Positions 13,894 to 57,000 of a DNA stretch of 58,109 bases are shown here, one piece after another (position 1 is the first letter of the stretch; each line of letters starts with the position of its first letter). The notes under the pieces were generated by a model. That model had not been told where the DNA came from. It saw only the letters and a list, made by a program, of their open reading frames with translations, and searched no databases. Source of the DNA: Fimicolochytrium jonesii (lineage: Eukaryota); assembly GCF_025526975.1 (NCBI RefSeq), contig NW_026515670.1, positions 1,736,001-1,794,109 of the forward strand, in the 5' to 3' direction. Position numbers and translations under genes: made by a program.

Positions 13894-13903
13894 TTGATCT
13901 GCT
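13894..13903 (+). promoter_or_regulatory. Self-priming primer-binding site of G1
   Basis: TTGATCTGCT is the reverse complement of AGCAGATCAA at 13768-13777 inside the LTR. No TGG-type tRNA PBS is present. Confidence 0.75.
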
Positions 13904-13942
13904 CAACAACCCCCAGCCGCTGTACCTCCACGCCAAATCACC

Positions 13943-14869
13943 ATGTCCGACGCCCTTCCCCTCACGGCCGAAGCCTGGCAAGCCATGTGCAATGCGATTG
14001 ACGAACTTCGAGCGCAGAATACCACCCTACAAGCCGAACTAGCGCAAACCCAGACCACTGCCCCTGCCACCCACGCCCCCGAACCCAAAATCAGTCTCCC
14101 AGACAAATTTGATGGCACCCGAAGCAAGTTCCGTGGGTTCCTCAACCAGATCCGGCTCATGTTCGCCCTCCAACCCAGGCGCTACCCCAACGATCAGACC
14201 AAGATACGAACTATTGGCACCTACCTCACTGGCACCGCCCAGGCCTGGCTGGCGCCCCTTGTCGAACAAGATCATCATTCCCTTACGAACCTGGATGATT
14301 TCATCCAGCAAATGCAAGCAGTCTTTGGAGACAGCGACAGGATCCGCACGTCCGAAAACAAGCTCCAGAACCTTCGACAAACCCGTGCAGCAACAGAGTA
14401 TGTAGCTGAATTCCGACATCTGCAATGCGATGTGTTGTGGAATGACCAGGCATTGATTGCCACCTTCCATCGCGGCCTCAAAGAAGACGTCAAGGACTTA
14501 ATGCTCACGATGCCCCCTACCGCCTGAATCGACACCGTGATGGAACAGGCCATCCAATGTGACAACCGATTGTTTGAGCGCCGTCTAGAGCGAAGCAGGA
14601 ACCGACAGCCATATGTGCCAGTTACCACTAGCCCCACCCTCATGAGCCCCGACAACCGCCCAGACGACCCTATGATCATTGACGCTGCTCGTCCGCGAGG
14701 ACCCCTCACACCGCTAGAGCGCCAACACCGCATCACAAACAAACTTTGCCTCTACTGTGGTAAACCCGGCCACATAGCCAAACTCTGCCCGAACAAGATA
14801 CGCACGGCGAATGTCGCGGTTAAGGAACCTGCACCCATCCAGGATTTTGCCCAAGTCCAGCTGCAGTAA
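13943..14869 (+). pseudogene. gag: G1 gag with CCHC zinc knuckle; in-frame TGA at 14525-14527
   Basis: PDKFDGTRSKFRGFL, LTGTAQAW and CLYCGKPGHIAKLC motifs. The two ORF pieces share a frame. Confidence 0.93.
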
Positions 14870-17800: not shown

Positions 17801-18652
17801 CAGTTCAACTCCCACTTCTGGAAACGTCTCTTCGCTCTCCTGGGAACCAAGGTCAACCTCTCATCGGCGTTCCATCCCCAGAGCGATGGACAAACCGAGC
17901 GGACCAATCAGATTCTTGAGCAATACCTTCGCTGCTTTTGCAACTATCAACAAGATAACTGGAAGGAACTCTTGTCTTCTGCTGAGTTCTCTTACAATAA
18001 CACCATCCACTCCGCCACCCAGAAAACCCCCTTCTACGCCAACTATGGGTTCCATCCTCGATTCAGTCTGGCTTCCGCCACCACAACCGAATCCCTTAAT
18101 CCTGCAGCCGAAGCTCGTGCCAACCATCTCAAGGAAATCCATGAACAGCTTGCCACTGAGCTCAAGGAGGCCCAAGGACGCATGAAGCGCTTTGCCGATG
18201 CTAAGAGGGCACCTGGCCCAGACATGAAACCCGGGGACAGTGTCTGGCTCTTACAGCGGAATCTCAAGACTCTCCGACCTTCCCAGAAACTTGATCACCG
18301 TAAGATTGGCCCCTTCACAATCACGGAGAAGATCAACTCGGTCACATATCGCCTCAAGCTTCCCCCATCCTACAAAATTCACAACGTCTTCCATGTCTCC
18401 CTTCTTGAACCACGTTTCACCATTCTGGAGCGAACTGAGCCAGAACCCACCCCACCAGAAGAAGTCGAAGGACAGGAGGAATGGATTGTGGAAGACATTC
18501 TTGACTCCCGTATTCGACGCACGCACCTTCAGTACCTCATCAAGTGGCAGGGTTGGCCAAGCTCGGAGAACACATGGGAGCCAGTGGAACACCTTGCCCG
18601 ATGTCAAGAGCTTGTTGCCCAGTTCCACCAAAAGTACCCCGACAAACCCTGA
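14842..18652 (+). CDS. pol: G1 pol (protease-RT-RNase H-integrase-chromodomain), probably inactive
   Basis: LLDTCA protease motif, LCVDYRGLN, YLDG in place of YLDD, SDASD, ISMDF/SDRGPQF/QTERTN integrase motifs, chromodomain EWIVEDILDSR...YLIKWQGW. Candidate slippery site G GAT TTT at 14842-14848 and an apparent indel near 14900. Confidence 0.95.
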
Positions 18653-18709
18653 CCAAAGCCTGCCAACACCAAAACAACATCCGGACGCCGTGGCTAAAGG
18701 AGGGGGTGA

Positions 18710-19185
18710 TGTTATGGACGACGCGTCCATACCATGCGCTTACCTCATGACAGCATCCCAACAGTCAGTCAATGTCAATTCCCTGTCAAAACCTGACATC
18801 TGCCAAACCACGCAGCCGCACGTAGCCACACCTCCCAACACTCGGCGCTTACAAACCCTTCTCCATACTTCCCCACGTACCTGCCCACAGCCTCAGCGTA
18901 GCCACCCCATCCCCAGTCTTCTGTTTCTATGCTTCCCCACCCTTGGCGCTTCTCTTGGCTTCCCTCTCATTCCGTACCCTTCTGCTTCCCCACGCTTCCC
19001 CAGCCTTCCCAGAAAAACATAAATAGCTGCCTCCCCTGAGCTCCCCACTTCCTGATCCCCCAGCAGATCAACACCAGTTCTTCCTAGTCTTGTTCTAGTT
19101 CTTGTTTCGGTCTGAATACCATTACCTGTCAACAACCTGCACCACAAGTCGCCTCTATTTCCATCGGCTCCGCCCATTCATAACA
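18710..19185 (+). repeat. 3' LTR of G1
   Basis: Follows the polypurine tract and is followed by the GTTGG duplication. Confidence 0.97.
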
Positions 19186-19910
19186 GTTGGAGGAACAACC
19201 GAGTCTGCCATGGTAGAAATCGCAACGTTTTCGAATATACCTGGTTCGAGTTGGACCACAGATGGGAATTCATTTAGTTTTGCAAATACCACGCCTTATG
19301 TAGTATGGGGTATCGCATGGGCATACGCAAATCAAACCACAACCAGAGGCTGTGCAATAAGAGCGATTCAGTTCAATCAGGCTGTTCCTAAAGCGACCCT
19401 TGTTAGCGCTGCTGCAAATTCTCTAGATGTTTCCGGTGTATTAACTACAAACACGGTTACGTGCAATGCAACTGCACTAGTGAAGAGCGACTTGACATGT
19501 AGTACCAACGTATTTGCTTCACAAATCATTCAATTTGCAGTTTGCATAAAGGACGGTGTTGTAGATACGTTGTTGACCAATGGAAATGGCTACACGGGGG
19601 GTTTCGGACCCATTGGATGGAAACCTGGTATGTCCGGGGTCGTTTGTCATGTAAGTTTTATGGGGTATATGAATTCGAACAACAGTCGAGTCACGATCAC
19701 TGTTCAAATATTGGATCAATCCTCTACCGTAGTCGCCTCTAGAGCAGTCTCGTACTACTGTGATATAAACAATTATCAGACTCGCTACCCATTCAGTTTT
19801 CAAGTGCCGTTGCTGTTTTCTTTGACGAATACGCAGTTAAGCGCAAGGATTGTCATACCAACATCTATAACATTATCTAATTCATATCTCAACTTTTGGA
19901 CGCAATGCTA

Positions 19911-25210: not shown

Positions 25211-28200
25211 GGCGTCCCTAAGCCGACGTCGTGTGTGATGTGTGTGTGTAAGGTCGGTTCTTGCGTTGCCGCGCGTGATGTGATGTAGTTTACGTTGCTA
25301 TTGTCAGTGGTGTGATTGATAGTGAGCGGTTCTTGCGGCGTCGCACGTGTGATGTGATATGAGATGCTCTATGCTGTTCGCCTCCATATCCACAAAGATT
25401 GTGGGTGAGCTTTTCGCCATCGTTTGTAGGCAGGCGTGTAGCGAAGTGGGGATTCGGGTTCCCAAGTAGGGTCAGGATAACCGAGCCATTTGACTACAAG
25501 ATTTCGTACGGCGCGTCGCTCGTCAATGATGTCTTCTACAACCCATTCAGGGTGTCCGCGTTCTTCGATTGGTGGAGGAGGTTGTGGAACTGCACGTTGC
25601 GGATTTTGCTCTTCGCAATGTGGTCGTAAAATATCGACGTGAAAGACAGGCCAGATGCCGCTGATCTTCGATGGTGATGAAAGGACTTCGTAGGTATCAG
25701 GATGTGCTCCCAGTGCGATGATTTTGAATGGTCCAATCCACGTAGCTGAGTATCAAAGTCCTCTTCGAGCGTCTACTTCTAGGTTGATTGCTCGTCGATT
25801 CAGATCGACGAGGTCGCCAATTTTGTATGCAATTGGCGTTCGACCCTTGTCGCGTTGACGTGCGAATTGATCTTGCGATCTCTGAAGGTTTTCGCGTACG
25901 ATACGGGCGATGTCTTCCTGCCCTTTCTTGAAGAGTTCGATTTTGTTTCGATCTACAGCTCGAAGTTTGAGTTCTTGTCCTTCGAGTGTTGGATTCCAAC
26001 CCAAAAAGATTGGAGAGCGTCCGAGATCTACTTCGAATGGCGATAAACCTTCATATTCCTCCCTTGGAGCGGTGTTGTATGCGAATTTGATTAAAGGCAA
26101 TAGTTTCTTCCACTTGCTTTTGTCGTAGTTGAGGTATTGCTTCCAAATCCTTTTCAGGGTTTGCATGGCTCGCTCAACTTTGCCGTCAGTTTGCTGATGA
26201 CGAGCCGTAGCGAATTCGTGTTTAACACCGAGGAGAATATCGAATGCGAGGAAGAAGTCGGAAAGTGCGCGAGGTTCGCGATCCGTAACGAAGACTTTTG
26301 GCGTACCGACATGTTTCCAAACATGATCTAGAAAAACTTGGGGTAGTTCGCGTCCAGTGACTGTCTTCTTGATCGGTGTCAGAATCACACGTCCGGAAAG
26401 GTAATCAATGCAGACGAGACAAGAGTTTGTTTCATCTACTTCGAATATGTTGAATCCGAATCGTGTGCCATCTTCCAAAAGGTATAGGAAGAGGTCGAAG
26501 AAATCCATATGGACGATGACCAGGTTTGAATTGTCGACAGGGTTTGCAAGTTCCAACGTATTTGATAACGTCGGAGCGTACGGTAGACCAGTAATAGTCT
26601 GTAAGAATTCTCGCAAGAGTCTTCTTAACACCGAGATGTCCTCCGGTGGCGAGTTTGTCATGGAATTTCCGTAAAATCTTTGGGCGAATGCCTTCAGGAA
26701 CGTATGGACGTCCTTCGTGTCGTACTAATCCATTTTCAAACGTATAACAGAGTTCTTTTGAAGTTTTCTTGTGTTGAGGTTTTCGAGAAATTTCATCGAG
26801 ATAATCCGAATATGGATCTTCGCGTAGCGCTTTTTCTGAGCAGGTAGGTGAGTTTTGTGGATCGTCTGTCGTAGCGTTGGAGGAAGGTTTGTTGACAAGC
26901 ATGTTGCTGATCTGCGTATGCATGTCGAGGCGTCGTTGACAATCTACACACCGAGGCACATAGATTGGATTATGGCAGAGCATGTCGGCGATATGATTCC
27001 ATTGTCCAGGTAAATACTGGATGTCAAAATCATACTCTTGTAGCTTCTCCACCCAATTGGCTTGTCTTCTGCTCAAATGGGGTTGCGTTTGGATGAATTC
27101 GAGTCCCTTGTGATCGCTAAAGCATCTGAAGTAACGACCGATGAGATATGATCGGTTGGCGACCAACATCTTGACAAGAGCTAAAAGCTCCTGTTCGTGC
27201 GTAGGATATCGAGTTTCTGCGTCCTTCATCTTTCTAGAAAAGAAGACCACAGGCCCAAGCCGAGGTAACTTCTTCCATTGTCCGACGAGAGTAGGCAGAT
27301 TCGTAGGGATCGTTTCATCGCCAGAAGGTTGTCCAATCCAGCCAGCGATCGCGTAGCCTGATGAGTCGGTATAGACGTAAATCGGCTTGGTTTCATCGAT
27401 TGTCGCTAGCGTAGGCGCATTGATCAACGCTTCTTTCAAGTTTTGAAATGCCTCTTGTTGCTCAGGACCTCATCGAAATTTGACTTTCGAAGATTGAATG
27501 CTTGATAGGGGCAGAGCGATGTCCGAATAACCTTGTACAAAGTCGAGGAAATAGTTCGTGAAACCGAGAAAGCTTTGAACTCCTTTTGTTGACTTTGGAG
27601 TAGCCCAATCCTTGATAGCTTGGATTTTCGAGGGCGCGATGCGAACACCATGTCTTCCGACAATATATCCACACCATTCGAGTTCTTCTTTAGCCCATAC
27701 GCACTTTGAAGGCTTGATGAAAAGGGCGTGTTCTTCAAGTTTCTTCAGGATACGATAGACGTGTTCCCAATGTTCGGCTAAGGTCTTCGAGAAAATGAAA
27801 ATGTCGTCCAGGTAGGTAGCAAGAAATTCGTCGTGATCTTTATGGAAGATCTTATTAATAAGACATTGAAATGCAACAGGTGCGTTGATGATCCTGAACG
27901 GCATAACCAAATACTCGAAATGTCCGAAGCGAGTTTGTATTGCCGTTTTTTCTCTATCTTGTTTTCGTATAAGAAGACAATGGTATGCTTCTCGAATATC
28001 GATAAGCGTAAACCATTTACAACCTTGAATTCGATCCCTCATCTCACAAAAATTGGGTGAAGGAGTGCGATCTTTCTTGGTGACAGCGTTGAGACCTCGG
28101 TAGTCCCATCAGATGCGTAATCCGCCATCTTTCTTTTTCGCAAAGATGACACAAGCTCCCCAGGGACTTGAGGAGTGTTGTATCCATCCTTTTTCGAGCA

Positions 28201-30899: not shown

Positions 30900-31609
30900 G
30901 TAAGTTGAGAAAGCGCGGCATCTTGGTTGAAAGCTTCGGTGAGGGCTTCCATGATTCGGCTAACGGAAGGTAACTGAGTGGGTCGCAAACGGCTTCCTCG
31001 TTCAGCAGCGAGTCGTCTGGCTCGTTGGAGAACTCGTTTGTCGAAGCCGGGTTCGTCTTTCCACAGGGTCAGAAGTAAATGATTTCTTCTTTGTCGGTGA
31101 TCCCGTCAGTTCTTGAGTATTGATAGGCGATTTCATTGATAAATTCGGTAGCGTTGGCAGTGTTCTGTTTGACATGGTCTCGTTGACTGAGGGCCCATTG
31201 TTCAAGGTCATTGAAGGTATAGCGAGTTTGAAACGGATTAAAGTGCAACATCACTTCTTCAGTAAAGGTTGTCCATGTGGGCTCTTCTCTCCATCGAGTA
31301 AATTCCGTTATTTCGAGTGCTCGGTAACTAGGCATGCTACGAAGCAGCGCCTGAATACTTGGTCTCGAATACTGAGAGAATGTCTGCATACATCGTTTGT
31401 TTTTCAGTTCCACGATTTGTCGTTGCTGCTGATTAGCAAGAACAGGATCTCGGGGGTCGTATGGAATGCGAGGTGCGGTGTGCGGAGGGTTTACGACGAT
31501 TCTCGAATACTCAGCGTCGGGTTTGTATCCAGCGTCGTTAAGTTGAGCAGTGAATAAATGGATTTCCTCTTGTACATCTCGTCCATCAAACTCTATAGCT
31601 CCAGGTTGT
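30900..31609 (-). pseudogene. Older gag relic into which G3, the copia element and G2 inserted (continues at 38194-38214)
   Basis: Joining 38214-38194 to 31609 restores an open frame GLPMIGQPGAIEFDGRDVQEEIHLF...WTTFTEEVMLHF. Confidence 0.7.
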
Positions 31610-34600
31610 TGTTGGAGGTATCATCCTCCCGAGACCCCGGTTAGGGTTCCGATAGTTTATTTCCTCACGTGACTCCCCTCCCGCTTACGCCACGCTTCCG
31701 CGTACGGGACTTCACTCTTTTCTTCCCTTTCGGACCTCGCGTCCTCTATACACTTTAGACTTTTCTACAGAAGACAATACATACTTCACAGTACAGCATT
31801 GCATACTACATAGAGTTCGCTCAGTCATCTGCTTCCTCTGCCAACTACTGCTAAGTGGTTATGAGCCCTGGCTTCGCCCGCAACTAGCGGATGTTCCAGG
31901 ATAAAGAACTCACGGTCTCCAGTCACGGCTCTCTTAGAAAGCACCATGCCACCTAAGGATTCAACAACCCAACCTCAGAAGGGCTACGCAGCTGCAGTGA
32001 CAGCCGGCAAGCCCTCCGCTCACCACACGCAGTCCCAAAAAGGAGCTCTCCTGGGACCCCTACCTGCGGCTACTAGAGGAGGAGGAAAGAAAGTTCAACA
32101 ACCCCCTGTTAAGAGTTCTGAATCTATTAATCAGCGCTGTGGCATTGACTCACGTACTCCGCTTAATCAAGGCGTAGCCCGTCATGCCGATTTATGCAGT
32201 GAACCAACACCTACCCCGCCTTACAAAATGCCTGGAGAATTTGTGGATGAGAAGAAGAGGAAAGAGGAGCTTTCTGCTACTATTGCAGAATGGAAAGACG
32301 TAAGCACGCCATATGTGGATGCGCCTGAATCACGCGGACATACCGGAACCGACCCCTTCCTGATAGATTCCATTCAGGAAGAACCTATGCCTGTCAAGCA
32401 GGAAGAGGAGATGCTTCAAACGAAGGATCAAATAGCCAATCTGACTGGATTGGTTGCCTCGCTCTTGACTTCGGGCCGAGCGCCACAACAAGGCGGACCT
32501 ACCGTCCCCTCCGTGAACCTGCTCGCTCAGTCGCCTGTGAACAGCACTCGTTCTCATTACTCGACTAGCCCCATCCAGGCAAACGTGCCATACATGACCT
32601 CTGTGTCGCCGGCACCCCATGCGCCTCCTCAACGCGCTATGGCCTACTTGGTCCCATATGCTTATAAAGCCCCGGAACGGCATCCTTACTTTCAAACCCG
32701 TTCTCAAAGCCCTCCTTTCGCTGAAATTCCACACGAAAGTGCATCTGTGAGATCTGTTACTCCCGTAACACCCCCTACGGCCGGCAAATCAGCTTCCAAA
32801 GTCTTCATCAACACTACCCTTAGTAAACTCGGCACCTACAACGGCGACCCCAATGTTACCAAGCTTCAAGGGTTCCTTGATCACATCGACGTGATTATGA
32901 AGTACCAGATGATTTCGCCTTCCGAATGCGTAGACTTCGTCGTCAATGCGCTCACTGGACCAGCTCTCCAGTGGTGGAAAAGCCTTCCTGAAAACGAGCG
33001 CTTCTCCATAATTTCATGGCACGATATTCAAGACGCCTATGGACTGCCCCCGCAACTCGGATTACGCTCCACGATGTTAAGGCGCTTCGTTCCCCGAACT
33101 CATCTGCCGCAAGTTCTTCACAGACTGCGCGCACTGAAGCCCAAGTCAATTAACCATCAAGGTTTAACCGAATTCGTCGCCCAGCTCAACCTTTTGGCTG
33201 GACAACTCCCCGGGCTCCCGGAATACGTGCTCTGTGCCGACTTCCTTCGAGCCCTTCAAAAGAATCTTAGTACCCTGATCACTGCTCAGGCTCAGTACGA
33301 CGATAGACTTAGCCCTTCTCAAGAAGCCGCGATTTGTATAGCCGCCCAGCTCAACGAGAGGACCCCGAGCACGCCTCAGTTGGGCGCATCCGCTGTTCAC
33401 GTTACTTCCACTCTACCTCAGAAGAAGAAGGACAAATCCAAGACTGGCGGCTCTAGAGGCACCCCCTCTACCCAATCCTCATCTTCTGACGCCACCAAGA
33501 AGCCTCCCCAGTGCAAATATTGCCAAAGGGACGGCCACAAGTCGGAGAACTGCTTTACTTACAAAGCTGTCAAGGATATCATGGACAAGAACGCGAAAAC
33601 CAAGCAGGACGCACCCGCTGCAGCCTCCATGGCTTATGCCATGCACGTTCAAGTCCAACCAGCCAACCACGACGTCCGCCTCTTCAAGGCGAACGTGGAT
33701 TCCGGTTGTACGGATCATATGACCCCCTATATTGAGGATCTAGATCCATCTTCTCTTCAAGACTACCAACGCCTTCTTGAACTCGCGGATTCGACTACCA
33801 TTACCTCTCAAAAGAAGGGTACCGTACTTATCCAACCTACGTCCGGCGGCAACGTTCTCGCTCTTCGCAATGTGTTATTGGTTCCCAGTCTTGCCCAGCC
33901 GCTTATATCTGTTGCTAAATGCACTGATAACGGCGTTACCATCTCCTTTCACCCCACCGACGTCGTTACGTTCAATACCGACCAACATCTACTCGCGATG
34001 GGAATGCGCGAAGGCGACGCGTACTATTTAGAAGGACAGGTTACTACCTACAAGCCCAATGCACATGCACTGGTCGCTTCCATAACCCCCAACTTCTGCA
34101 TCAACGTCTTGGACACCCTGGAAACCACATTCTCCCGGTTATGCTTAAGATAGTAGAGGATTGGCCTTCAGTGGGGGCTACGCCGGACTCCGGCGCACGC
34201 TGCGATCCACGCGCTCTCGGCAAAGCTACCCGCCATACCTTCCCTAGATCGACATCCCCGCCACACAAACCCGGCGAGCTGATTCACAGCAATTTACAAG
34301 GTCCATTTCGGATCCACGGCATCAACGGAGAGCGCTACAGTCTCGCGTTCCTCGACGACGGCTCCGGTTTCGCCCGTACCTACTCCATCAAGGACAAGGA
34401 GGCATCCCCTATTACCGCAAGGTTTATGATCTTTCATAAGTGGCTCAAGAATCAAACTGGCGTCTCCCTCAAGATCCTACATACGGATAGGGGAGGAGAA
34501 TACACTGGCGAGCTCACGTCGTACCTACACGACAATGAGATTACCCATGAGTCTACTGTCGCGTATTCTAGTCAACAAAACGGAAAAGCAGAGCGCCTCA

Positions 34601-37600
34601 ATCGGACGTTGCTGGACCGCGTACGCGCCATCTTCGCGGACACTCACCTTCCCCGCAAGCTCTGGCCGTACATCCTGGAGGCTATCTCTTACCTGCACAA
34701 CCTCCACCCGCATTCAGTTGCATCCCCGGACGCCAAATCGCGCTCCGAATTCCTTACCGGTCGCCGCCCAAGCATCGCGCATCTGCGCAAGCTCGGATGT
34801 CTCACGTACACTGTCGTTCCACCCAAGGGCCGGGACAAGATGGCAAATCGTGCTACCAAGACGTACCTAGTGGGCTATGCTCACCAACAAGGCACCAAAG
34901 GTTACTATGTCTGGGATCCAGTTTGCGACACTGTCGCCATCTCACGTGACGTTCGTTTCGACGAATCTACTGGACTCCCTGAGCACCTTCGTCAAGATCC
35001 TGCTCTCCTAGATCTTCTAGAAGATGCTCCTACCTCGCAAGAGGAGTTCCCTATCGAACACATCCTTTCTGAACGTCAGCGCCGCGGCAAGAACGTCCAA
35101 AAGGAATACCTCGTCAAGTGGGTTGGTTTTACTACCCCTACCTGGCGACCACGCTCTGATCTCATTGAGACTGAAGCGTTGGATATTTGGGATTCTTGTC
35201 CAGACGCTTTCAACTCCCGAACCATTGAAGCCCTCTCAAACGCCTTCAACACGCGTACCTAAGACACACCTCAATCCGTCACTATGACCTGGCGACAAGC
35301 AATGGCCTCCCCTCAATCAGCTGACTTCAAGCTCGCAGCTGATAAAGAGTTCCAAGCTCTCTTCGATAACGGTACTTGGGAGCTCATACCCCGTCCGCGA
35401 AATCAGCGCGTACTCGGTAGTACTTGGGTACTTCGTCAAATCTTCAATCCGGATGGTACTTTCAAGAAATTGAAGGGCCGCGGTGTAGTTCAAGGTTTTT
35501 GTCAATCCAAGGGTACTGATCATAACGACACCTACGCTCCAACCCTACCCATGTCAGTTCTTCACCTTTTCCTCTCCATTGCCGTCTCTCTTGGTATGGA
35601 AATCCATCAACTCGACGTCCCCAATGCGTTCTTACGCAGCGATATCGACGGACCCGTCTATGTTGAACAATTTCGAGGCTACGAAGATCCGCACAAGCCG
35701 CGCGCAGACTGGGTATACCTCTTACGCAAGGCTCTATACGGTCTGAAGCAGTCTCCGCTTCTCTGGTACCGTACCCTGCGCGAAACCTTCAGTTCTCTCG
35801 GCTTTACCCCGTTAAAGAACTGCCCTTGTGTCTTCTATCACTACGCAACAATGACGCGCACCCTGGACGCCCTCCAGATGCTCCTTATCTATGTGGACGA
35901 TTTCATCGCCTGCTGCTTTCCCGTACACATCAAACAAGTGAAAGGTGAACTATGTTCTCATTTCAACTGTACGGATCTCGGTCCCATCAAGAACTGCCTG
36001 GGTCTCGTCTTCAATTACCAGCTCTCGCCGTCCGGGAACCAACTCAAAATCAGCAAGGTCACCTATATTGACGGTTTACTCGAACGATTTGGACAACAAA
36101 ACGCTACCCCGGTCTCTACGCCGTGCGCCGTCTCTGCGCGTACCCGACCAGCCTCCGCAAGCCCCCCTTTTCATAGCAAGCTTCTCTACCAGGAAGCAGT
36201 GGGAGCCCTCACGTGGGCATCCATCACCTGGCGCTGGGATATTTCTACTGCCGTCGGCTTCGTCGCACGTCAAGTCTCAGCTCCTACTCAAGCCGACTGG
36301 AATGATGTACTTCGCATCATGCGCTACCTTAAAGGTACCCGCACCTTCGAGCTTACCTACAAGTCCGGTCATTCCGATCCTACTGGACTTCGCGTCTATA
36401 CAGACGCATCCTACGCAGACGATGTCAACGACCGCAAATCTACCACGGGCATCGCCAGCTTCTTCAACGGCCAGCTTATCTACTGGAAAAGCACTAAGCA
36501 GAAGTGCGTAGCTCTCAGCTCCACGGAAGCTGAGTATATCGCCGCAGCCCTCGCTTACAACGAGGTCATCTGGCTCCGCTTGATCATCGCGGAGGTCTTC
36601 GGCGACGAATACGGCAACATCAAGGACCCCACGCCACTCCACATTGACAATCAGAGCGCACGCGAGATTGCCAACTCCACGGCTATTACTCAACGCTCCA
36701 AACACATCGACGTACGCTACCACAAGCTACGCGATGGCGTGGCGAAGAAAGACGTCGTATTCCTCGACACCGCGGCGCAGGAACAACTGGCTGATTACTT
36801 TACAAAGCCCTTCCCTCCCGAGACACATACGAAATTTATTCAAGCAATTCAAGAAGGACGTGTCGCTAGCAATAGACAGCCGGCGACGACGACGTCCAAA
36901 TGAGACATACGGAACACCCATACCGGGACGGCTTCTGGGCACTACATACGAATTCGGCAACTTAACCCGCCACCGTGATAGTCGCCGCTGCCCCGGCACC
37001 GGGGGCTCCGCCGGCTCCGGCTCCGCCTCCACCAGGCGGACCCCTTGGACCACCTCCCCCGCGGTTTCCGTCACCGTCTCCATCCTCACTCGAAGACGAA
37101 TCATCCATCTGCTTTTGCAAGTACTGGAGTCGCGTCATCATCTTGTCTCGCTCCCGTCTCTCGATCGCATCACTGCGGCGCTTCGCCTCTTTCATCTTTT
37201 CTTTCGATATGCCGTCTTTTGCCTTATATCGCGACTCCGAGACTGCCTTACGTCCAATAATGAAATCTGACCTATTTCAAAATTATCAGTTGGTGAGATT
37301 CCAACAAGTAGAACTAGTAGACAGTAGTCTGCCTCCTCCATCAATGCCTCAAACGACCCCTTCTTTCGCTTCGATCGATCCAGTTTCGCCTTCGTAAACG
37401 CCAGGTGCTTCGCAAGGTTCTCATGGTTATCCTTGCGGTACCTCAACGTCGACACCTCCGTCGCCAATCGAAGAGCTTCTCTAACCCAGGCTTTCGACAT
37501 CGAAGAGTCGCTTGCAGACGCTGCGGACGATGCGCGCGTAGAGCGCGTTGTCGGTCGTGAGGGTCCTGGTGGAGGTGCAGCTGGGGGGGCTGCTGGTCTC

Positions 37601-38188
37601 ACCGTCTTACGGGCCGATTGCTTCTTCTTGCCGTCGACGCTCTTCTTGCCCTCCCGCTGTTCTTGCCTCCGTTTGCCATTGTTTCGCGTATCGTGTGGTA
37701 GTCTGGGATACGGTAGTTGAGTATGGGAACGTTGGTCTTACCTCTCTGGGGCGACTGACAGCTGTCTCTTGTTTTATACTCGTGGCGTTTCTCTCTTCTT
37801 TCATTTTACTCTTTCATTTCTTTCATTTTTAGTCATAGCGATTCATCCCCCTGACCGCCCGCTTTTCGCGTACGGCCGCACCATTGTATTCATTGTTTGT
37901 TTTATCTTTCACTTAGATAGACTCGAGAGTTTGAGTGGGGGTGTTGGAGGTATCATCCTCCCGAGTCCCCGGTTAGGGTTCCCGTAGTTTATTTCCTCAG
38001 GTGACTCCCCTCCGGCTTACGCCACGCTTCCGCGTATGGGACTTCACTCTTTTCTTCCCTTTCGGACCTCGCCTCCTCTTTACACTTTAGACTTTTCTAC
38101 AGAAGACAATACATACTTCACAGTACAGCATTGCACACTACATAGAGTTCGGTCAGTCATCTGCTTCCTCTGCCGAATACTGCTAAGT
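31610..38188 (+). mobile_element. Full-length Ty1/copia LTR retrotransposon carrying a chromodomain
   Basis: 247-bp LTRs at 31610-31856 and 37942-38188, target duplication GTTGT (31605-31609 and 38189-38193), PBS GGTTATGAGCCC, purine-rich tract before 37942, and domain order gag-PR-IN-RT-RH. Confidence 0.97.
31946..36903 (+). pseudogene. Copia gag-pol polyprotein; frameshift near 34088 and TAA at 35260-35262
   Basis: CKYCQRDGHKSENC, VDSGCTDHM, LHQRLGH, IHSNL (D to N), HTDRGGEY, NGKAERLNRTL, chromodomain, HQLDVPNAFL, LYGLKQS, YVDD, YTDASYA, SSTEAEY and KHIDVRYH. Confidence 0.95.
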
Positions 38189-38214
38189 GTTGTCCTATCA
38201 TAGGTAAACCTCGG

Positions 38215-41200
38215 TGTTATGATCTCGACGACGGGGCGAAAGCGAAGTAGAGAAAATAGGGCGAGTGTGATAGGCGACAAGAGATTGTATTGGCGAAACA
38301 AGAAACAAGGACTAGAACAGGAGATGAGAAGAACTGGTGTTGATCTGCTGGGGAGGAAGGGGATGGATGAAGAGAGGCCGGCTATTTATAGATAGGCAAC
38401 CCAGCAGATCAGAGAACAACAACAACAAGAGGGGACTGGGGGGGCGCCAGCTATGCTCCTAGAGCGTGCGTGGCGAGCGTAGAGAGCATTGCTACAGCTG
38501 CTGGCTATGGGAAGTAGTGGGGGGTGTGGAGAAGCCAAGGGGGGATTGGCTAAATGAGAGGAGAGAGGAGGAGTGGCGATATTGCAAGAGGATTGGCAAA
38601 ATGAGAGGAGAGAGGGGGAGTGGCATTGACATTGACATTGACACTGACATTGACACTGACATTGACATTGACATTGGCGTTTGACATTTGGCGGTTGACA
38701 TTGGCGGCTGTCAGTAGGTAAGCTTATGGTATGGGCGCGTCGTCCATAACATCACCCCTCTCTTTAGCGGCGGCGGCGGCGGCGTCGAGTTTGGTGTGGC
38801 CGCAGAGGAGGTGCCACGGGGACAGAGGAAGGCTTGTTGGGGTACGCGCTGTGGAAGTCCTGGAGGAGTGCGTCGGTATGGGTGAGGTGTTCCACGGGCT
38901 CCCAGGTGTTCTCGGAGTCAGGCCAGCCCTGCCATTTGACCAAGTACTGAAGGCGACGACAATGAATGCGAGAGTCAAGGATGGCTTCGACAACCCACTC
39001 TTCTTGACCCTCAACGGTCTCTGGGGGCGCGGGTTCGGGTTCGTGTCGTTCGGGGATGGTGAAGCGGGGTTCGAGGAGCGAGACATGGAAGACATCGTGG
39101 ATTTTGTACGTAGGCGGGAGCTTGAGCCGGTAGGCGACAGGATTGATTTTTTCAACGATGGGGAATGGCCCAATCTTGCGATGGTCGAGTTTCTGAGAGG
39201 GCCGGGTTGTCTGGAGGTTTTTGCGGAGGAGCCAGACGTGGTCGCCAGGCTTGAAGTCCGGTCCAGGAATTCGTCTAGCGTCGGCGTAGCGCTTCATTTG
39301 TTCTTGGGCTTCCTTGAGCTCGAGGGCGAGCTGTTCATGGACTTCCCTGATTTGTTTAGTGCGGGCTTCAGCGGCGGGGTTGACGGATTCGGAGGTAGCA
39401 GAGGCCGCGAAACTGAAGCGGGGGTGGAGACCCTTGTTGGCGTAGAAGGGGGTGGTCTGGGAGGCGGACTGGTGGGTGTTGTTGTAGGCGAACTCGGCGG
39501 ACGACAGAAGCTGTTTCCAGTTGTCCTGTTGGTGGTTGCAAAAGCATCGGAGGTACTGCTCCAGGATCTGGTTGGTGCGTTCCGTCTGGCCATCGCTCTG
39601 GGGGTGGAAGGCCGAGGAGAGGTTGGCTTTTGCCCCAAGGAGTTCGAGAAGTCGGCGCCAGAACCGGGACTTAAACTGGGGTCCTCAGTCAGAGATGACG
39701 TCGTCGGGGAGGCCGTGGAGACGGATGATGTTGTGGAAGACTAGGTCGGCGGTGGAATCGGCGGATTCTGACTCGCTGCAGGCGATGAAGTGGGCCATCT
39801 TGGTGAGGCGACAGTTGACGTTCAGGATGGAGTCGTACCCGTCCACGGGAGGCAGACCGGTGATAAAGTCCAGCGACCAAGATCCCCAAGGGCGGGTAGG
39901 GATACTGTTGGGCTGGAGTAGGCCATATGGTTTGTGTCGACTGGATTTCGCTTGGCTACAGGTATCGCAGGACTTGACGTAGGCCTTGACGAAGCGCCAA
40001 TGGCTGGGCCACCAGTAGTTGCGGGAGGCGAGTTCAAGCGTCTTGGACATCCCAAAGTGGCCGGCTAGGGGTGTATCGTGCATGTCGTGGCAGACTTCAG
40101 CTCGGAGCTCGTTGGTGGGGACATAGACCAGGTTATCGTGCAGCAGGATCCCATCTTCATCTGAGAACCGCTTGATACGATCTTGGGTTTCCTCGGTTCG
40201 TTGGGCGAGGGGTATCTTGAGCTTTTCGCGAATGGTCTTAGCGAGGGGATCAGAGGCCTGGGCGGCCTTAATCTTGTCAAGCAGCGTGGTATCCATGGGT
40301 GTGAGGTAGGCCGCGGCGAGGCGAAGGCGTTCGGGAGTCAAAATTGTGGTTGCCTGGGAGCGGAACGCTTCTTCCCCCTTTTTTAGCTCATGTTCGGAGC
40401 GTCGGGAGAGGGCATCGGCTTGGTGCTGCTGGGAACCGGGGCGATGGGTAATGACAAAGTCGAAATCCGAGAAGAATATCGACCAGCGGGCTTGGCGGCG
40501 GTTCAGGGTGCGGGTGGTCATGAAGTACTGAAGGTTTTTATGGTCGGAGTAAACGGTGATCTTGTGACAGGCGCCAATGAGATGGTGTCGCCACTGGGCA
40601 AAGGAGTCTTGGATGGCCAGAAGTTCCTTGTCGTAAATCTCGTAGTTGATCTCTTCGGCCGTGAATTTGCAAGAGTGGAAGGCCACGGGGTGGAGCTGAT
40701 TGTCCTGGTCAGGTTGGAGGAGAACTGCGCCAAGAGCGAAGTCGGAGGCGTCAGTTTCGACGACGAAGGGCTTCTCTGGGTCAGGGTGAGCAAGGATGGG
40801 GGCGGTGGTGAATGCTTTCTTCAGGTTCTCGAAGGCGGTGTTTGCGGCGGGTGTCCAGGCTTACGAGATGTCTTTCCGGGTCAGGGCTGTGAGCGGGGTA
40901 GCGATCTTGGAATAACCTTGGATGAATCGGCGATAGAAGTTGGCAAAGCCGAGGAACCGCTGGACGCCTTTGACAGTCTTGGAAGGTTCCCAATCCGTGA
41001 TGGCAGCGATCTTCTTGGGGTCCATCTGGATGCCTTTCTCGGAGATGATGAAGCCTAGGAACTCAACAGATTCGCGGTTGAATTCGCACTTCTCTGGTTT
41101 GGCGTACAACCCATGCTGTCGGAGGCGGGACAAGACTTCGCGGACATGTTTGGGGTGATCTTCGGGGTTCTTGGAGAATATCAGGATATTGTCGAGGTAG

Positions 41201-43784: not shown

Positions 43785-43874
43785 CAGGCGCGTGTCCAGG
43801 GGCCGGTGAATCAAATTGACAGCGGCCTTGCTTTATGAACGGCACTGTACGCTGGGGTTGCCAACAATCCCCAT

Positions 43875-44435
43875 ATGCTCCAGGAGTTCATTCACAAGAT
43901 GGGCAACTACCTCAGAGTGTCCGACATGCCTCAGGCCCACATTACCCTCCTTGTTGAGAGCGGGCTTACTTGACTCGTGAACCATTGGTGGCTTACCTTG
44001 ACCGAGGAGGAGAACCCCCGAACGTGGCTCCAAACCAGAATTGCCCTCGAGCAGCCCGCCTTCGAAGACACTCTCCAAGAACGGCTCGACGATGTGAAGC
44101 AGACAGGGACCGTCATTGCCTATAACAACGCCTTCAACAAAACTGCAGCCCAGTTGCCCTCCTGGGACCCTTTCCAAATAAAGAGGTATCGTTACTTGAA
44201 AGGCTTGAAGCGCAACATCTCCTGGAACACATCATTGATATTAAAGGGGATCAGAAACGCCAACAGTCGAAGCCCATGATGCCGAATCCCAGGACTTAAA
44301 CGAGGAACGCTCCCGTGGTGGTCAAGGACGCGGACGTTGGGGAAAAGGTCCGTCTCGTGTGGAACGAGAGGAGCGTGTGAAGAATGCGATCTGCAGACTT
44401 TGTGGGGCAAAGGGATACTACGTTTCCGCCTGCAC
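43875..44435 (+). pseudogene. Degenerate retrotransposon gag relic
   Basis: NHWW, LDDVKQTGTVIAYNNAF, YLKGLK and a decayed knuckle CRLCGAKGYYVSAC. Confidence 0.7.
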
Positions 44436-49682: not shown

Positions 49683-51986
49683 TCACTGAAATCCCCCCTC
49701 CTCGGCCTGCCCCGTGCTGCTCTCCCCCCTCGTCGCGGGCGGATCACTCAAACTAACCGCCTCCATCATGACATCCTCGCTCTTCGCAGACTTGAGCAGC
49801 TCGATCTTGTCGCTCGATGTTCCGCGGAACGGGTTGTCGACCTCCTTTTTGGAGGGGCTGCGGGCGCGGAAGCTGACAGTAGAGCCTTGGCGCGAAGCGG
49901 CGCGGACGGCCTGGATTTGTTGCAGGGTTTGGACGTTGGATTCGGAGAGAGTTGTGAAGTGGGGGCGGATGTATCTGGGGGGGGGGGGGGGGGGGGGGGG
50001 GAGGGGGGGAGGGGCGGGTAGAAGTTCAAGGTTGTGAGCATCGGTGGGGGAACCCAGCCCCGAAATCGAAGTTTGTCAATACTTACTTAGCATCCAACTG
50101 ATAAAGCCACGCAAAAATCACACTCTGCTTCGACGGCGTCGCCAACACCTGCGCTTCCTCATCCAACTCATTCTGCGTCTCAATCATCCCATACCCCTGC
50201 CCTCCCTCCCCACCCGCCGTCGCACTCCTCGGCGTATCCGCCGTCCCCGCCACGGCGCCCACAGTCGGATGCCCCGCCTTCGGCTCCGCATGGGTGTCCT
50301 CAACCAAATGCAGCCACTTCAACATGCTCGGTGTCAACCCACCCAGCACAAGCACGGTCAGCACGACGACCATGACGGTGGTGCCGAAGATCTGGCCTTT
50401 GACATCTTCGTCAAAGACGGGGTGCTCGAGGAAGGTTACGCCAAGCGCGAAGGCGACGGCGCCACGAAGGCCGGAGAACCACATGAGAACTTGTTGGTTG
50501 AAGGGGACTGCGTCTTCTTTTTTGCCGGCGATGTTGGTCATGCCGAGGAAGATGAAGATGTGGGTGCGGGAGACGAGGATGGAGATCTGGTGGGAGGGGT
50601 GTGAGCCTTGTATATTGGTGATATGGGTTGGGATGCATGGGATACTTACAGCGGCGAAGAACACTAGCATGGGACTGTAGACCGTCTTTCCGCCGAAGGA
50701 TAACAGGCCGAGACCCAAGTACAGGAAGATGAAACACTCGCACATGAATCCGATCATGCGCAAGGTCGACTACGATAATCGCAAGGCATCAAAAAATCAA
50801 AACAACCATTGCCATGCCAAAACCTCCGTCAGACCACCCACCTTCAGATTCTTCGCACTCTCCGGCGCCAAATTATTATACGCATAATGCGCCATCGTAA
50901 TCCCCGTAAAGAAGACACTAATGATTCCCGTCAAACTCAACAGATCCGCCAGCAGGTAGCTCACATACGCGAAAATGAGCACCATCGTTGTCTCATACGT
51001 GCTCACTTCATGCGGGTCCACCTTTACATGTTTCGTGATCTTCGCCAATCCCAGGCCGAATGCTACCCCGACGATCGCGGAGCCGAGGAAGACGCCGGCG
51101 GAGGCGAAGACGGCAAGGAGGAATGTGCCAGCTCCCAGGCGCATGTGCGGGTCGGCGAGGGAGGTAAAGAAGCGGTACAGGATAATCGAGACCGCATCGT
51201 TCAAGGCCGACTCGCCGAAAATCAGCATGTACAATTTGCGATCGACGTTGGCGGGGAGCAGCGAGAGAACGGTGACCGGGTCCGTTGAGGAGATGAGGGA
51301 TCCAAAGACGAGGGACTCGATGAAGGACCAGGGGGAGATGAGTTTGGAAAAGAAGTACATGAGGATGGATGTGACGAAGGTGGAGTAGAGGGCGCCGAAG
51401 AAAGCGAGGACCATGATTGTGAGGATGTTTTGAAAGAAGGAGACACGTTGGAGGGCAAAACCGCCCTGTTTGTGGGAGAGGGTATCAGTGGGTGGGTTTT
51501 TGTGTGGGAGGGGGGCGAACGTACCTCGAAGATGATGGGCGGCAGGAGGACCATGTAGAAGAATTTACTGGATAGTTGGATCGCGGTGTTTTGCTCGTCG
51601 TAGGAGATGGCGGTCCATCCCATCGCAACCACCAGTCCTGATCGAGTCAAAAGTACATCAGTAATGCGCTCCAAAATCATTCCACTGCAGGGCTCTTCCT
51701 GGCAAGACTGCAGTTTTCCCCTTCCAAACCCGCACCGAAACTGACCCAACAAGATATAAACCGCCGTCTCCCCAACATAATGAAACTTCTTCTTATGCAA
51801 AAACACATTGATGTTCATCGCCACCGCCATCAGGATCAGCATCAGCAGCGCGCGCACGAAAAGGGTGTGCTGTTCCATTTCTGCCGATGAGTGCCCGGTG
51901 CCGATACCGCTGGGGAGGCCGTCGCCGGCGGAGATGTCGGTTTCGGTGGTGTTGGTGGTCGTCGTGGGCTCTTCTGTTAGGGACAT
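49683..51986 (-). CDS. Na+(K+)/H+ exchanger, CPA1 family, multi-exon (NHX1/NHE8-like)
   Basis: FFYMVLLPPIIFE, FGSLISSTDPVTVL, IFGESALNDAVSI, LSLTGIISVFFTGI and WFSGLRGAVAFAL, with several short GT-AG introns. Internal exon boundaries were not all resolved. Confidence 0.95.
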
Positions 51987-52763
51987 TTTGGCGAGCGTGG
52001 TTGTGAAGCGGAGTTATGGAAGAGTAACCAAGTGACAGGAAGGAAGTTGCCGTTGTTGCTTGGACTGTTGCGACGACGGTCTCTAATTGGGGGGGGGAGG
52101 GGGGGAGGGGGGGGGGGGTCTCAAAATTCCAAATAAGAAGGCTTTTTCTCAAGGGATGAGAACGAAGACTAATTTCCCGCTAGTTCTGAGTTTTGGTCGA
52201 GTCAGCGGAGTTGAGGAAATGACTTACGTAAGATGCGCGGTCTGTGTTGCGCCCTCTCTCTCGTATCTTCCCCCTCGGCTCACTACTAGTCTGTCAAGGG
52301 GACAACGAACTATAGAAACTGTATACTCAACCCGGCCACCCACCCGTCGTTACACTCCCACACCCCCGAGAATTTGTCGAAAATGGACTCCAATGCATCA
52401 ACCTCAAAGAAACGACCCCAGGACACCGAACGTTCCGCCCCCCCATTCACCGCCTCCACAGCTGCCACCTCCACCTCCACCTCCACGCCATCCAAAAAAG
52501 CAAAACATCGTCATATCGAACACCACGTCACCTGCACAATGATCTCGAACGTTTCTTCATTGACTGGCCGGTAGGTACCGTGCTTCGTTTGTGGTTTTCC
52601 TCCGCTCGTGGTTTTTCGCGAGCGTCGTGTTACTGTCAAAATCGTTGTGGTGGTGGCCGGCAGAAGCGAGGGTCTGTCGAATCCGGGGGGTACGGTCGGG
52701 TGTCGGGAAAAATAAGCTGCCGGTCTCTCAATAGCACAAGAAGAGATCTCAAGCGAGAGCGTC

Positions 52764-53800
52764 TGTAATGAGGTGCTGCAGGTGTCACCTTAGTGCGGGG
52801 AAGCGCGTGTAGCATAGATTATATTGGAGTCCTACGCTCTGGGGTGACTCCCGAAGGGAAGAAAAGCCTTCGGGCGGCGCCCCGGGAGGTAGAAACTCTA
52901 GAATTCTTTCAATACATCGAGACGGAGACAGAGCTAGCCTCTGGCAACGGACCTAGCATTATTACATGGTAGCACCACCCTTCAAGATCTCTCCGGCAAC
53001 CTACGATGAGCAACTCTCAGGCGGGTGCTAATACCGCCGTCAGCGATGCGATAGTTAACAATGACCGCTTAGAGCTTGATCCATTTGAACACCCGCATCG
53101 AAGGGCGCAACGGCTTGACGGCGACCAACGCCAAGGCAACGGCCCCGCAGAGCGTAACCGCCTCTTGCACAGGCGCAGGGGGTCACCCCCGTGGTCGCCA
53201 CCTGGAAGGAGGCACTCCAGCTCACGCTCACCTCGTCGACGTCGAAGCCCGGACCCCCAACGCCGGAATCGGACGCCAGAGCAATAGAGGCGCGGACGAC
53301 GAGGTCGCAGGAGCATCTCCCCACCCCGTCAAAGGAGTCGCTCAGCAAGCCGCCACCGCAGCTGCTCCCCGGCAAGGACCCGAAGCCGCTCCCCCATGCG
53401 GCGCAGGAGCCGTACCGCAGCCCGACAAGAGAACGGACAGGCAACAATCCTCCAAATCCTGGCCCAGCTGGCCAACACCAACGCCCAACTCCAGCAGCGA
53501 TTCGAGTGCCTGGAGAGGGACCGCCCAGATGACGGCCTCTGAGCTGGAGTACAGGTTGGCCGCAAGGACCATTTGGCAGCTAGCAAAGAGCGTAAGCGCA
53601 AGGCGGCCGCAGAGAAGGAGTTCCGAACCACCTTGGCTAAGATGCTGATCAAGTTCGACGGTAAGGCTAACGGTAAAGACATGGTCGCCAAACTGGACGA
53701 GTTCGTCGACGCCCACCTACGCTATCTGAAAGCCACCGAATTCAGAACGGAGGACGGGGACGTGAAACACTCTGTGGCCCACTTGTCGGGAGACGCTGTA
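52764..53800 (+). mobile_element. Truncated LTR retrotransposon: 5' LTR, PBS and start of gag
   Basis: 203-bp LTR 52764-52966 (TGTAAT...ATTACA), PBS TGGTAGCACCACC at 52967-52979 identical to that of G3, and gag-like LIKFDGKANG...LDEFV...HLSGDA. Confidence 0.82.
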
Positions 53801-54070
53801 GTATTGCGCTTCAAACTGCGCATGAAATCGATAATATTCCGACGCCAATTATACGCCTAGAATCTTTGACGAGCGAAAGAAATCACCTTTATACGACAAC
53901 GTCAAAATACGGTCAAAACTTTCGACAATAAATCGACACACTCACGTTCCCGACACTCCGACGATTACCAAATACAACCACCTTTACCGAAACCTTCCTT
54001 CACAACGATGTTTTGTCCTCGGATACGACTGACATGCGAAAAATGTAGGCGTAGGAGAGGATCTCACACA

Positions 54071-57000
54071 TAGGGTTAGGGTTAGGGTTAGGGTTAGGGT
54101 TAGGGTTAGGGTTTAGGGTTACAGGACTGTTCCGGGTTATGGGTTATTTTTGGTGGTCCGGAAAGTGTCAAACAAAGTTGCTAGCAATGTTCAAGGGCGT
54201 CTTACGGTACTGTACATAGAAATTTGGGGCATGTTTTCCACTCAATGCTCCCGGAAAATCTGTTTTTCCGCTTTTTGACTATGAAAATGTCACCAAAACG
54301 CATTTTCTGAAACTCTGAGTGGATGGATTTTGCTTAAAGTTCAATATGTCTCAGAAAACATCCCCAGAAACATCTAGGAACCTTCATCTACTCTAGTATT
54401 TATCAACTCCTGGCACTTTTGGTTTCCAGGCAATATGGGGGTGTTCTGCAGTTGGCGGCGAGTCACTCAGTTTGGTTTGCTCTCAATTTGCTACATGTTC
54501 AAATCCTTTTGAGGCCCAAATACTTTCCTTTCTTCCATTGCTCCTCCGGATGGTGGAGGATGGCAAATGCCTTTTTGCATTGCAATATATGGATATGACA
54601 GGGTGTTTGTCAACTAGCAAATCATGCAAAAAGCGTGCAGTGCATGTCCGTTTGCATGCACTATGTCATCTGTACCACCTTGGACACCCCAGGAAAATTG
54701 TGCGGATTCAAAAGATAATATAGTTACGGAAGTGGAACCAGGGAGATTCAATGACTAATGAAGGGCCTATGGCACACATAAGTTCCCAGGAGTGGGACTT
54801 GGAGAATTTGTTGCCTGGAACCCTAGGGACTTAGAAATTTTCGAGTTTTTTGGCTTTTGGGTGTGTTCTACAGTTCGAATTTTTGACTCTGAGGGGTGTA
54901 GTGGCGGGGGGTGTTGCGCACCTAGGCAAGTTGGGGAGGACTAGGTGTGCAAGGGCAAGTGATGGGTCATATGGGCGGTGGTGCGGGTACGGGGGGGGGC
55001 AGGGGTGCGAATAGGGGGGGGGGGTTGATATAAAGGGGACATATAAGTTATATATACGTTATAGGACTTGTGCAAATTGGGATTTTTTTAGTGCCGATCC
55101 GGAGTTGGCGTCCTAATTAAAAGTTGGCCCCATATCATATTCTCTAATTGAAGTACTCTCGGATTGGCAATCTGTGCGGAAAAGGCTTCAGAAACTTAGA
55201 AAAACAAAATTTGCACGCGACAGGGGGTAAAAAATTGGAAAATGTGGTGATATCTCAACATCTGGCTGAATAACCAGTGTTGGGCACTTAATGAAAGTTG
55301 ATTGTAGCCTATGGTTTGCATAGCTGATGTGGTAGCAAATCTTGTGTAACCTTGCTTTTGGCTGAAGAAAAGGGCCCCTTTTCAATTCTCAAGTCGTGAC
55401 CCCCAAGACCTCCTAACAAAAGACTCGAGTACGTATGTGCAGGCAAAGGGGGTTGGCTGTGTTCTCCAGTAAACATTTTGTGAATTCCGCTGTGCATTGT
55501 AGACTGTATGTAGGACCCTTGGGTTAGGGTTAGGGTTAGGGTTAGGGTTACAAGACCCCCTGGGTTGGGTTTTATTTTTGGGTTGCCTGGAACCCTAGGG
55601 ACTTAGAAATTTTCGAGTTTTTTGGCTTTTGGGTGTGTTCTACAGTTCAAATTCTTGACTCTGAGGGGTGTGGTGGCGGGGGGTGTTGCGCACCTAGGCA
55701 AGTCGGGGGGGACTAGGTGTGCAAGGGCAAGTGATGGGTCATATGGGTGGTGGTGCGGGTACGGGGGGGGGGCAGGGGTGCCAATAGGGGGGGGGTTGAT
55801 ATAAAGGGGACATATATGTTATATATACGTTATAGGACTTGTGCAAATTGGGATTTTTTTAGTGCCGATCCGGAGTTGGCGTCCTAATTAAAAGTTGGCC
55901 CCATATCATATTCTCTAATTGAAGTACTCTCGGATTGGCAATCTGTGCGGAAAAGGCTTCAGAAACTTAGAAAAACAAAATTTGCACGCGACAGGGGGTA
56001 AAAAATTGGAAAATGTGGTGATATCTCAACATCTGGCTGAATAACCAGTGTTGGGCACTTAATGAAAGTTGATTGTAGCCTATGGTTTGCATAGCTGATG
56101 TGGTAGCAAATCTTGTGTAACCTTGCTTTTGGCTGAAGAAAAGGGCCCCTTTTCAATTCTCAAGTCGTGACCCCCAAGACCTCCTAACAAAAGACTCGAG
56201 TACGTATGTGCAGGCAAAGGGGGTTGGCTGTGTTCTCCAGTAAACATTTTGTGAATTCCGCTGTGCATTGTAGACTGTATGTAGGACCCTTGGGTTAGGG
56301 TTAGGGTTAGGGTTAGGGTTACAAGACCCCCAGGGTTAGGGTTAGGGTTAGGGTTAGGGTTAGGGTTAGGGTTAGGGTTAGGGTTAGGGTTAGGGTTAGG
56401 GTTAGGGTTAGGGTTAGGGTTAGGGTTAGGGTTAGGGTTAGGGTTAGGGTTAGGGTTAGGGTTAGGGTTAGGGTTAGGGTTAGGGTTAGGGTTAGGGTTA
56501 GGGTTAGGGTTAGGGTTAGGGTTAGGGTTAGGGTTACAGGACTGTTCCCGGTTATGGGTTATTTTTGGCCATCCAAAAAGTGTCAAATAAAGTTGCTAGC
56601 AATGTTCAGGGGCATCTTACTGTAATGTGCTTCAAATCTTGGGGCATGTTTTCCACTCAATGCCCCGGGAAAATCTGTTTTTCCGATTTTTTACTATGAA
56701 AATATTGCCAAAATGCATTTTCTGAAACTCTGAGTGGATGGATTTCGCTTAAAGTGAGATATGTCTCAGAAAACATCCCCAAAAACATCTAGGAACCTTC
56801 ATCTACTCTAGTATTCATCAACTCCTGGCACTTTTTGTTTCCAGGCAATATGGGGGTGTTCTCCAGTTGGCGGCGAATGACTCATTTTTGCTATGATCTC
56901 GGGGACGGAGGCGGAAGCGAAGTAGAGAAGACAGGGCGAGAGTGATAGGCGACAAGAGATTTTATTGGCAAAACAAGAAACAAGGACTAGAACAGGAGAT

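Follow-up and report, generated by a model that had tools for sequence, protein, structure and literature searches.

The yeast element Ty5 is a Ty1/copia retrotransposon that uses a half-tRNA primer and targets silent chromatin through the C-terminus of its integrase, where a short Sir4-binding peptide is found and a chromodomain is absent. Chromodomains are known from the chromoviruses of Ty3/gypsy, including MAGGY, Tf1, and Tcn1 (PMC3350952; PMC6317226), and none were found outside that group in PMC6317226. The sole published copia precedent found for this architecture in the accessible sources is CoDi-A of diatoms, for which a putative chromodomain was described in 2009; the element was placed in Branch 1, and that report gives no chromodomain for other copia elements (PMC2774666). 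The statement on the diatom CoDi chromodomain is repeated in PMC5348765. CopiaMBD of arthropods is likewise a copia element that gained a chromatin reader proposed to guide insertion, although its domain is a methyl-CpG binding domain derived from a host gene, the binding of which was tested (PMC6673714). LTR elements have gained chromodomains repeatedly and separately, as in Chronos of oomycetes (PMC5348765) and in lineages of Ectocarpus (PMC12477816), all of which belong to Ty3/gypsy. Within the accessible parts of the open literature, with subscription journals and Repbase reports lying outside this scope, neither a chromodomain-bearing copia element beyond the diatoms nor a copia element with a gypsy-like Gag was found.

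A 58,109-nucleotide stretch of the Fimicolochytrium jonesii genome (contig NW_026515670.1; hereafter the window) was found to contain a complete but dead Ty1/copia element at positions 31610-38188, with a chromodomain behind its integrase. It is reasonably likely that this element is a dead copy of an old copia lineage that carries a chromodomain and a Ty3-like Gag, and that, in active members, the domain would stay on the integrase, bind H3K9me2/3, and bring new copies into silent chromatin. The lineage is apparently undescribed in print. It shares with CoDi-A and CoDi-I the copia domain order and a chromodomain at the integrase's C-terminal end (PMC2774666; PMC5348765; PMC2806351). Going by its description only, CoDi-A is set apart as a diatom-specific element of Branch 1 whose chromodomain is termed putative, whereas the focal clade falls among ordinary copia in free trees, has a Ty3-like Gag, and in most of its members keeps the canonical cage. 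The chromoviruses share with the focal element a group I-type chromodomain behind the integrase and the sequence type of the Gag, whereas it follows copia in its domain order, reverse transcriptase (RT), RNase H, protease, integrase, and primer site, and its chromodomain is internal in the polyprotein while theirs is described at the end (PMC3350952; PMC6317226).

Structure of the element

The features of the element are listed below by position in the window, with the evidence for each.

31605-31609, unstranded: left copy of the target-site duplication (TSD), 5 bp, identical bases at both flanks
31610-31856, plus: 5' LTR, 247 bp, TG...GT, aligned with the 3' LTR
31857-31868, plus: primer-binding site, from sequence
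31946-33560, plus: gag, with a long disordered N-terminus, a Ty3/gypsy-like capsid (32795-33361; PF03732 and PF19259), and a CCHC knuckle (33512-33553)
33695-33934, plus: aspartic protease of copia type (Pol_BBD; PF22936, E 5e-13)
34039-34090, plus: frameshift of this copy between the protease and the integrase zinc finger, where tblastn with intact relatives switches frame
34099-34968, plus: integrase with HHCC, DDE core, and C-terminal SH3 (34780-34968) (PF13976, PF00665, PF25597)
35041-35193, plus: chromodomain, by Pfam Chromo, profile score, AlphaFold, and Foldseek
35260-35262, plus: in-frame TAA that separates the chromodomain from RT and is confined to this copy; P0003, P0294, P0296, and P0008 have no stop there
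35263-36903, plus: RT (YVDD at 35890) and RNase H of copia type (PF07727, E 2e-43; motifs; tree)
37926-37941, plus: polypurine tract, from sequence
37942-38188, plus: 3' LTR, 247 bp, pair of the 5' LTR
38189-38193, unstranded: right copy of the TSD, same five bases as the left flank

The paired LTRs, primer-binding site, polypurine tract, and 5-bp TSD were all present. Domains identified through Pfam followed the order Gag, protease, integrase, SH3, chromodomain, RT, and RNase H, which is the Gag-PR-INT-RT-RH order of Ty1/copia, and the Pol families were of copia type (Pol_BBD protease, gag-pre-integrase, rve, SH3, and RVT_2). With a family profile, the best PDB match for the integrase was the Ty1 integrase (E 3e-38). 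The RT-RH-INT order and gypsy-type RT of chromoviruses were absent from the element, which shares with them a chromodomain at the end of the integrase.

The two LTRs are 95% alike, with 12 differences among 246 compared bases. The ends of Ty1/copia LTRs are usually, though not strictly, TG...CA. Both LTRs of the focal element end in GT (31853-31856 and 38185-38188), provided that the 5-bp TSD is right, and the LTR of the related locus L001 ends in CA, with a near-identical primer site directly after it. The primer site at 31857-31868 is presumably of the half-tRNA-iMet type known from Ty5 and Drosophila copia. Half-tRNA primers are described as confined to copia (PMC6317226).

Judged by its reading frames and catalytic residues, the copy is dead, since it contains the frameshift at about 34040-34090 and the TAA at 35260, and since, in the alignment to P0294, the first Asp of the DDE core is replaced by Asn and the second Cys of the HHCC zinc finger is gone. 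Programmed read-through at the TAA (35260-35262) was ruled out by the sense codons that occupy this site in relatives.

Identity of the chromodomain

The segment at 35041-35193 is a canonical (group I) chromodomain by Pfam score, fold, and cage. Pfam Chromo matched it with 26.7 bits (E 5e-6) when the domain alone was queried against a cut-off of 25.1, and with 21.5 bits when the whole open reading frame was the query. Among PDB matches with E<=1, 60 were listed, and nearly all of these are chromodomain proteins. Against a profile built from 12 non-copia chromodomains of mobile elements (11 gypsy and one Polinton-like), the linker scored 58.5 bits, compared with 8.1 bits for the best of 1000 shuffles. 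An AlphaFold model from a 16-row alignment consisted of three strands and a C-terminal helix, with a pLDDT of 88-95 across the domain, and the top Foldseek rows for it were chromodomains (Chp1, CBX2, CBX8, and HP1) at an rmsd of 1.5-1.9 A over 50-55 residues, none of them at E<=0.001. Group I chromodomains possess an aromatic cage of three residues, Y24/W45/Y48 (PMC3350952). The cage of the focal domain is complete, with codons for F at 35047, W at 35119, and F at 35128, and at 35146 this copy has Arg in place of the Glu that is conserved in the WEP motif.

The original prediction had placed a chromodomain at 35035..35200, in frame after the integrase of a copia element, and the Pfam match, the chromodomain fold, and the complete cage bear this out. 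The peptide quoted there is encoded at 35041-35190. The integrase core, SH3, and chromodomain indeed occupy one stop-free frame (33931-35259, plus), although the TAA that follows before RT had been omitted, and the copia nature of the host element was corroborated by the Pfam domain order and the RT-RNase H tree. Neither of the two conditions set there for a refutation arose: the Chromo profile and known structures matched the segment, and the domain was observed in other family members, in 16 of the 150 matches listed as well as in P0294, P0296, and L001.

Occurrence among copia relatives

The integrase and chromodomain were searched together against 1.84 billion representative sequences. A chromodomain, whole or cut, followed directly after the SH3 in 16 of the 150 matches listed, a share that is enriched because the query itself contained the chromodomain; Pfam Chromo matched 14 of these 16 carriers, with ten above the cut-off. 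Additional carriers were P0294, P0296, and P0298 among 71 matches, and P0229 and P0262 among 120 matches listed (2/120 with a chromodomain) in a search limited to proteins longer than 1932 amino acids, which returned mostly plant copia that served as outgroups. P0294 spans 1666 amino acids in a single intact frame and is 52% identical in RT-RNase H. At the locus level, L001 was the one carrier among 79 copia loci with protease and integrase motifs. A single-protein homolog search over 499 candidates gave one match, which had no chromodomain, and neither scans of viral contigs nor a first metagenome scan found relatives. In the ESM Atlas, the SH3-chromodomain piece gave only leads below 0.9, one of which was a cluster containing a diatom record.

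Some 20 diverged relatives, among them ones with an intact single open reading frame, have the chromodomain at the same position. Across 13 rows, mean pairwise identity fell from 41% in the SH3 to 10% in the linker, rose to 32% in the chromodomain, and dropped to 8% in the residues just after it, a profile that reads as the pattern of a selected domain. Excluding six cut or duplicate rows, the cage was complete in 12 of 18 clade rows and partly lost in the other six. One or two cage residues were lost in the sub-group of P0029, P0060, P0075, and P0139, which resembles the group II chromodomains of plants. Going by these comparisons, the chromodomain is a trait of a whole old copia lineage and not of a single copy.

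A Gag of Ty3/gypsy type

A Gag of the PF14223 group is a usual, though not strict, trait of Ty1/copia. Pfam did not find PF14223 in the focal Gag or in the Gags of its clade, which matched PF03732 and PF19259 instead. The focal Gag matched PF03732 with 32.9 bits and the Ty3 capsid family PF19259 with 27.9 bits, the latter being under the cut-off of 29.1; this gypsy-type Gag had been overlooked in the original prediction. In a set of 259 proteins whose integrase-RT linker was complete and whose Gags were typed by script, the chromodomain was found in all ten with a Ty3-like Gag, in none of 86 with a copia-type Gag, and in five of 163 untyped proteins, counts that are not independent since the rows are related. 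One of the five untyped carriers, P0298, has a PF14223 Gag, which brings the occurrence among copia-type Gags to 1/87. Similarly, none of 50 loci with a copia-type Gag and RT had a chromodomain.

A profile of the clade Gag matched the Ty3 capsid (E 3e-12), dArc1, and PEG10. The same profile scored three gypsy Gags at 49, 32, and -1 bits and 22 copia Gags at 14 bits or less. In profile-profile comparison, the clade Gag was equally close to gypsy and copia Gags, with both lobes spanned only by a gypsy match. An unrooted Gag tree of 39 rows, from which three rows had been dropped and for which the gypsy rows were chosen by the clade profile, separated 15 clade, two gypsy, and two unassigned rows from 20 copia rows (99/99). 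Foldseek with the capsid placed dArc1 and Ty3 on top and the Drosophila Copia capsid 29th, all of them weak; the Ty1 capsid was absent from the Foldseek rows listed and present in a wider structural search. The wider structural alignment failed to discriminate (Z of 11.2 for the Drosophila Copia capsid, 10.5 for dArc1, and 13.0 for PEG10), and a PDB search with the Gag as a single sequence gave no match. The clade Gag is Ty3-like at the level of sequence, and we infer that it was taken from gypsy.

Phylogenetic placement

The RT-RNase H phylogeny was built from 192 near-complete proteins plus two added ones, of which 99 were left after the removal of rows more than 58% identical. FastTree united 12 main carriers, without any non-carrier, at 99, and placed P0016 outside. 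IQ-TREE on 50 rows recovered ten carriers together with P0016 at 99/99 among copia, with the bootstrap incompletely settled. P0016, a clade member in the latter tree, has no chromodomain, and its Gag is missing from its record. A second chromodomain group of copia, P0229, P0262, and P0298, the Gag of which is not of Ty3 type, was joined by the non-carrier P0327 (97/97), a copia polyprotein with the CCCH zinc fingers PF00642 and PF18345 in its Gag. Four rows that we take to be GalEa-like from their RNase H motifs were set apart at 100/100. Free trees held these three groups separate, with the focal RT-RNase H among ordinary copia rows and the deep branches poorly supported. In these trees, Branch 1, in which CoDi-A is placed, was represented by the GalEa-like rows as proxies. 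In the integrase tree of 59 rows, the focal sub-clade of seven rows was recovered at 100/99, and the wide clade split into four sub-groups (AU p 0.057).

Origin of the chromodomain

The focal chromodomain scored 55.6 bits with P0294, its closest copia relative, and 55.3 bits with the gypsy domain P0349 of the fungus Berkeleyomyces. The best single cellular domain in PDB scored 26 bits, in a comparison where gypsy chromodomain rows were retrieved by similarity to the clade profile and fungal cellular ones were sampled through PDB only. The chromodomain tree (33 rows, 57 columns) was poorly supported, with copia and gypsy rows interleaved. A chromovirus is the favoured candidate donor. The four other chromodomains of the window scored 17-27 bits, and a capture from these neighbours, gypsy or Polinton-like, was rejected on account of their low scores. 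Independence of the focal domain from the neighbouring elements is likely, and independence from CoDi-A is plausible, the CoDi elements being known by description only.

The independent capture proposed in the original prediction gains partial support to this extent, and borrowing from gypsy looks likelier than a new capture of a host gene. The diatom precedent of 2009 had been missed there.

A further reading, somewhat less likely than not, is that an undescribed and ancient copia lineage of microbial eukaryotes would be a mosaic across superfamilies, in which a copia enzyme core acquired its capsid as well as a chromodomain that reads histone methylation from Ty3/gypsy chromoviruses, independently of CoDi-A, and would thereby target heterochromatin as chromoviruses do, with a second copia group of ordinary Gag gaining the domain separately. 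Chromovirus-like donors may have supplied the chromodomain and Gag by recombination, in two separate segments, given that what lies between and next to them, the protease, the integrase core, and the primer site, is of copia type.

A single ancient gain, common to the clade, the second group, and perhaps CoDi-A, followed by a later change of Gag or with the Ty3-like Gag as an ancestral retention, appears rather unlikely. In AU tests on 30 rows, which rejected no grouping, joining the clade with the second group was retained and gave a better tree (p-AU 0.72, lnL 9.35 higher) and joining it with the GalEa-like rows was retained (p 0.34). The poor support for deep RT-RNase H branches, as well as the combination of a chromodomain with a copia-type Gag in P0298, also agrees with a single gain. 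However, the three groups stay apart in free trees, and the focal RT-RNase H lies among ordinary copia, while CoDi-A is described in Branch 1 and CoDiI as distant from the Copia lineage (PMC2774666; PMC2806351). Additionally, 5410 plant copia elements are described without a chromodomain (PMC6317226). A single gain concerns the origin of the domain and is therefore compatible with a targeting role.

Capture of a host gene of the HP1, Clr4, or Chp1-like kind, instead of a gypsy donor, is unlikely. Chromodomains are ubiquitous, their fungal cellular representatives were sparsely sampled, and a tree of 57 columns is too short to fix the donor, all of which would leave room for a cellular source. 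Against it are the 26 bits of the best cellular match compared with 55 for the fungal gypsy domain, and the co-occurrence of the chromodomain with a gypsy-like Gag.

Proposed role of the chromodomain

Copia polyproteins are usually cleaved by the protease near the start of RT. Such a cut in active members of the lineage would make the chromodomain the last part of the mature integrase, as it is in chromoviruses. A chromodomain with an intact cage may then bind methylated H3 (H3K9me2/3) and dock the integration complex onto silent chromatin, so that new copies would land in silent, repeat-rich chromatin. The chromodomain of MAGGY is described to bind H3K9me2/3 (PMC3350952), and the ligand and the targeting are proposed here by analogy. 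The evidence for targeting covers one insertion at the level of sequence. The six incomplete cages among 18 rows and the Arg at the conserved Glu of this copy weigh against the proposed role, and selection alone is an alternative route to accumulation in heterochromatin.

A function on the integrase or cDNA, or the reading of another mark, with no targeting of heterochromatin, seems improbable. The chromodomain of Tf1 is described to restrain activity and to confer substrate specificity (PMC3350952), and a comparable role would account for a fold that is kept in rows where the cage is partly lost. However, this copy and its nearest relatives are among the 12 of 18 rows with a complete cage, and the nearest solved folds are readers of H3K9me and H3K27me.

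Genomic setting

Mobile elements, nested in one another, make up most of the first ~49 kb of the window. Five integrases with chromodomains are located within 40 kb, and every integrase found in the window bears one. Three belong to Ty3/gypsy elements, with intact-cage chromodomains at 18473-18640, 25402-25554, and 38839-39006. A Polinton/MELD-like element (142-24400) contains an A32-like ATPase, long fibre-like open reading frames, a D5-type primase-helicase, and an rve integrase (142-1500, minus) whose C-terminus bears a chromodomain of its own; a gypsy element with LTRs 99% identical (13413-19191) was inserted into it. The copia insertion interrupted an open frame without a Pfam match (31072-31609, minus). 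Decayed remnants of Ty3-like Gags without pol were observed at 43836-44400 and 53612-53950, the former grouping inside the clade Gags and preceded by what is presumably the tail of a Tc1-like transposase. The only clear host gene in the window is an intron-containing Na+/H+ exchanger (50086-52013, minus).

The region at 54036-58109 looks subtelomeric. It contains TTAGGG arrays, with 41 copies at 56292-56536, among duplicated units of 400-770 bp, as well as a solo LTR, a copy of the one that belongs to gypsy at 38215-38637. The telomere-repeat arrays lie 16-20 kb from the copia element. Together with the fungal-like gypsy neighbours, the TTAGGG arrays point to a probable fungal host. This repeat-rich setting is compatible with a putative targeting to silent chromatin.

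Gypsy debris inserted once in this copy, or an assembly chimera, might be suspected from the three chromodomain gypsy elements within 20 kb and from the decay of the focal copy, but this explanation has a negligible chance of being right and is already refuted by P0294 and others, as the domain is in frame and occupies the same site in about 20 diverged relatives, the neighbouring chromodomains score 17-27 bits only, the LTR pair and TSD are intact, and the GC content of the segment is similar to that of the remaining pol.

Implications

A chromodomain on the integrase counts as nearly diagnostic of gypsy chromoviruses, and copia and gypsy are regarded as firmly divided. A copia clade with a chromodomain and a gypsy-type capsid would represent an exchange of modules across this divide, and domain-based classifiers will misread such elements. 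Since carriers, members with cage losses, and a non-carrier occur in one clade, the lineage offers a natural experiment on whether the chromodomain suffices by itself to retarget a copia integrase.
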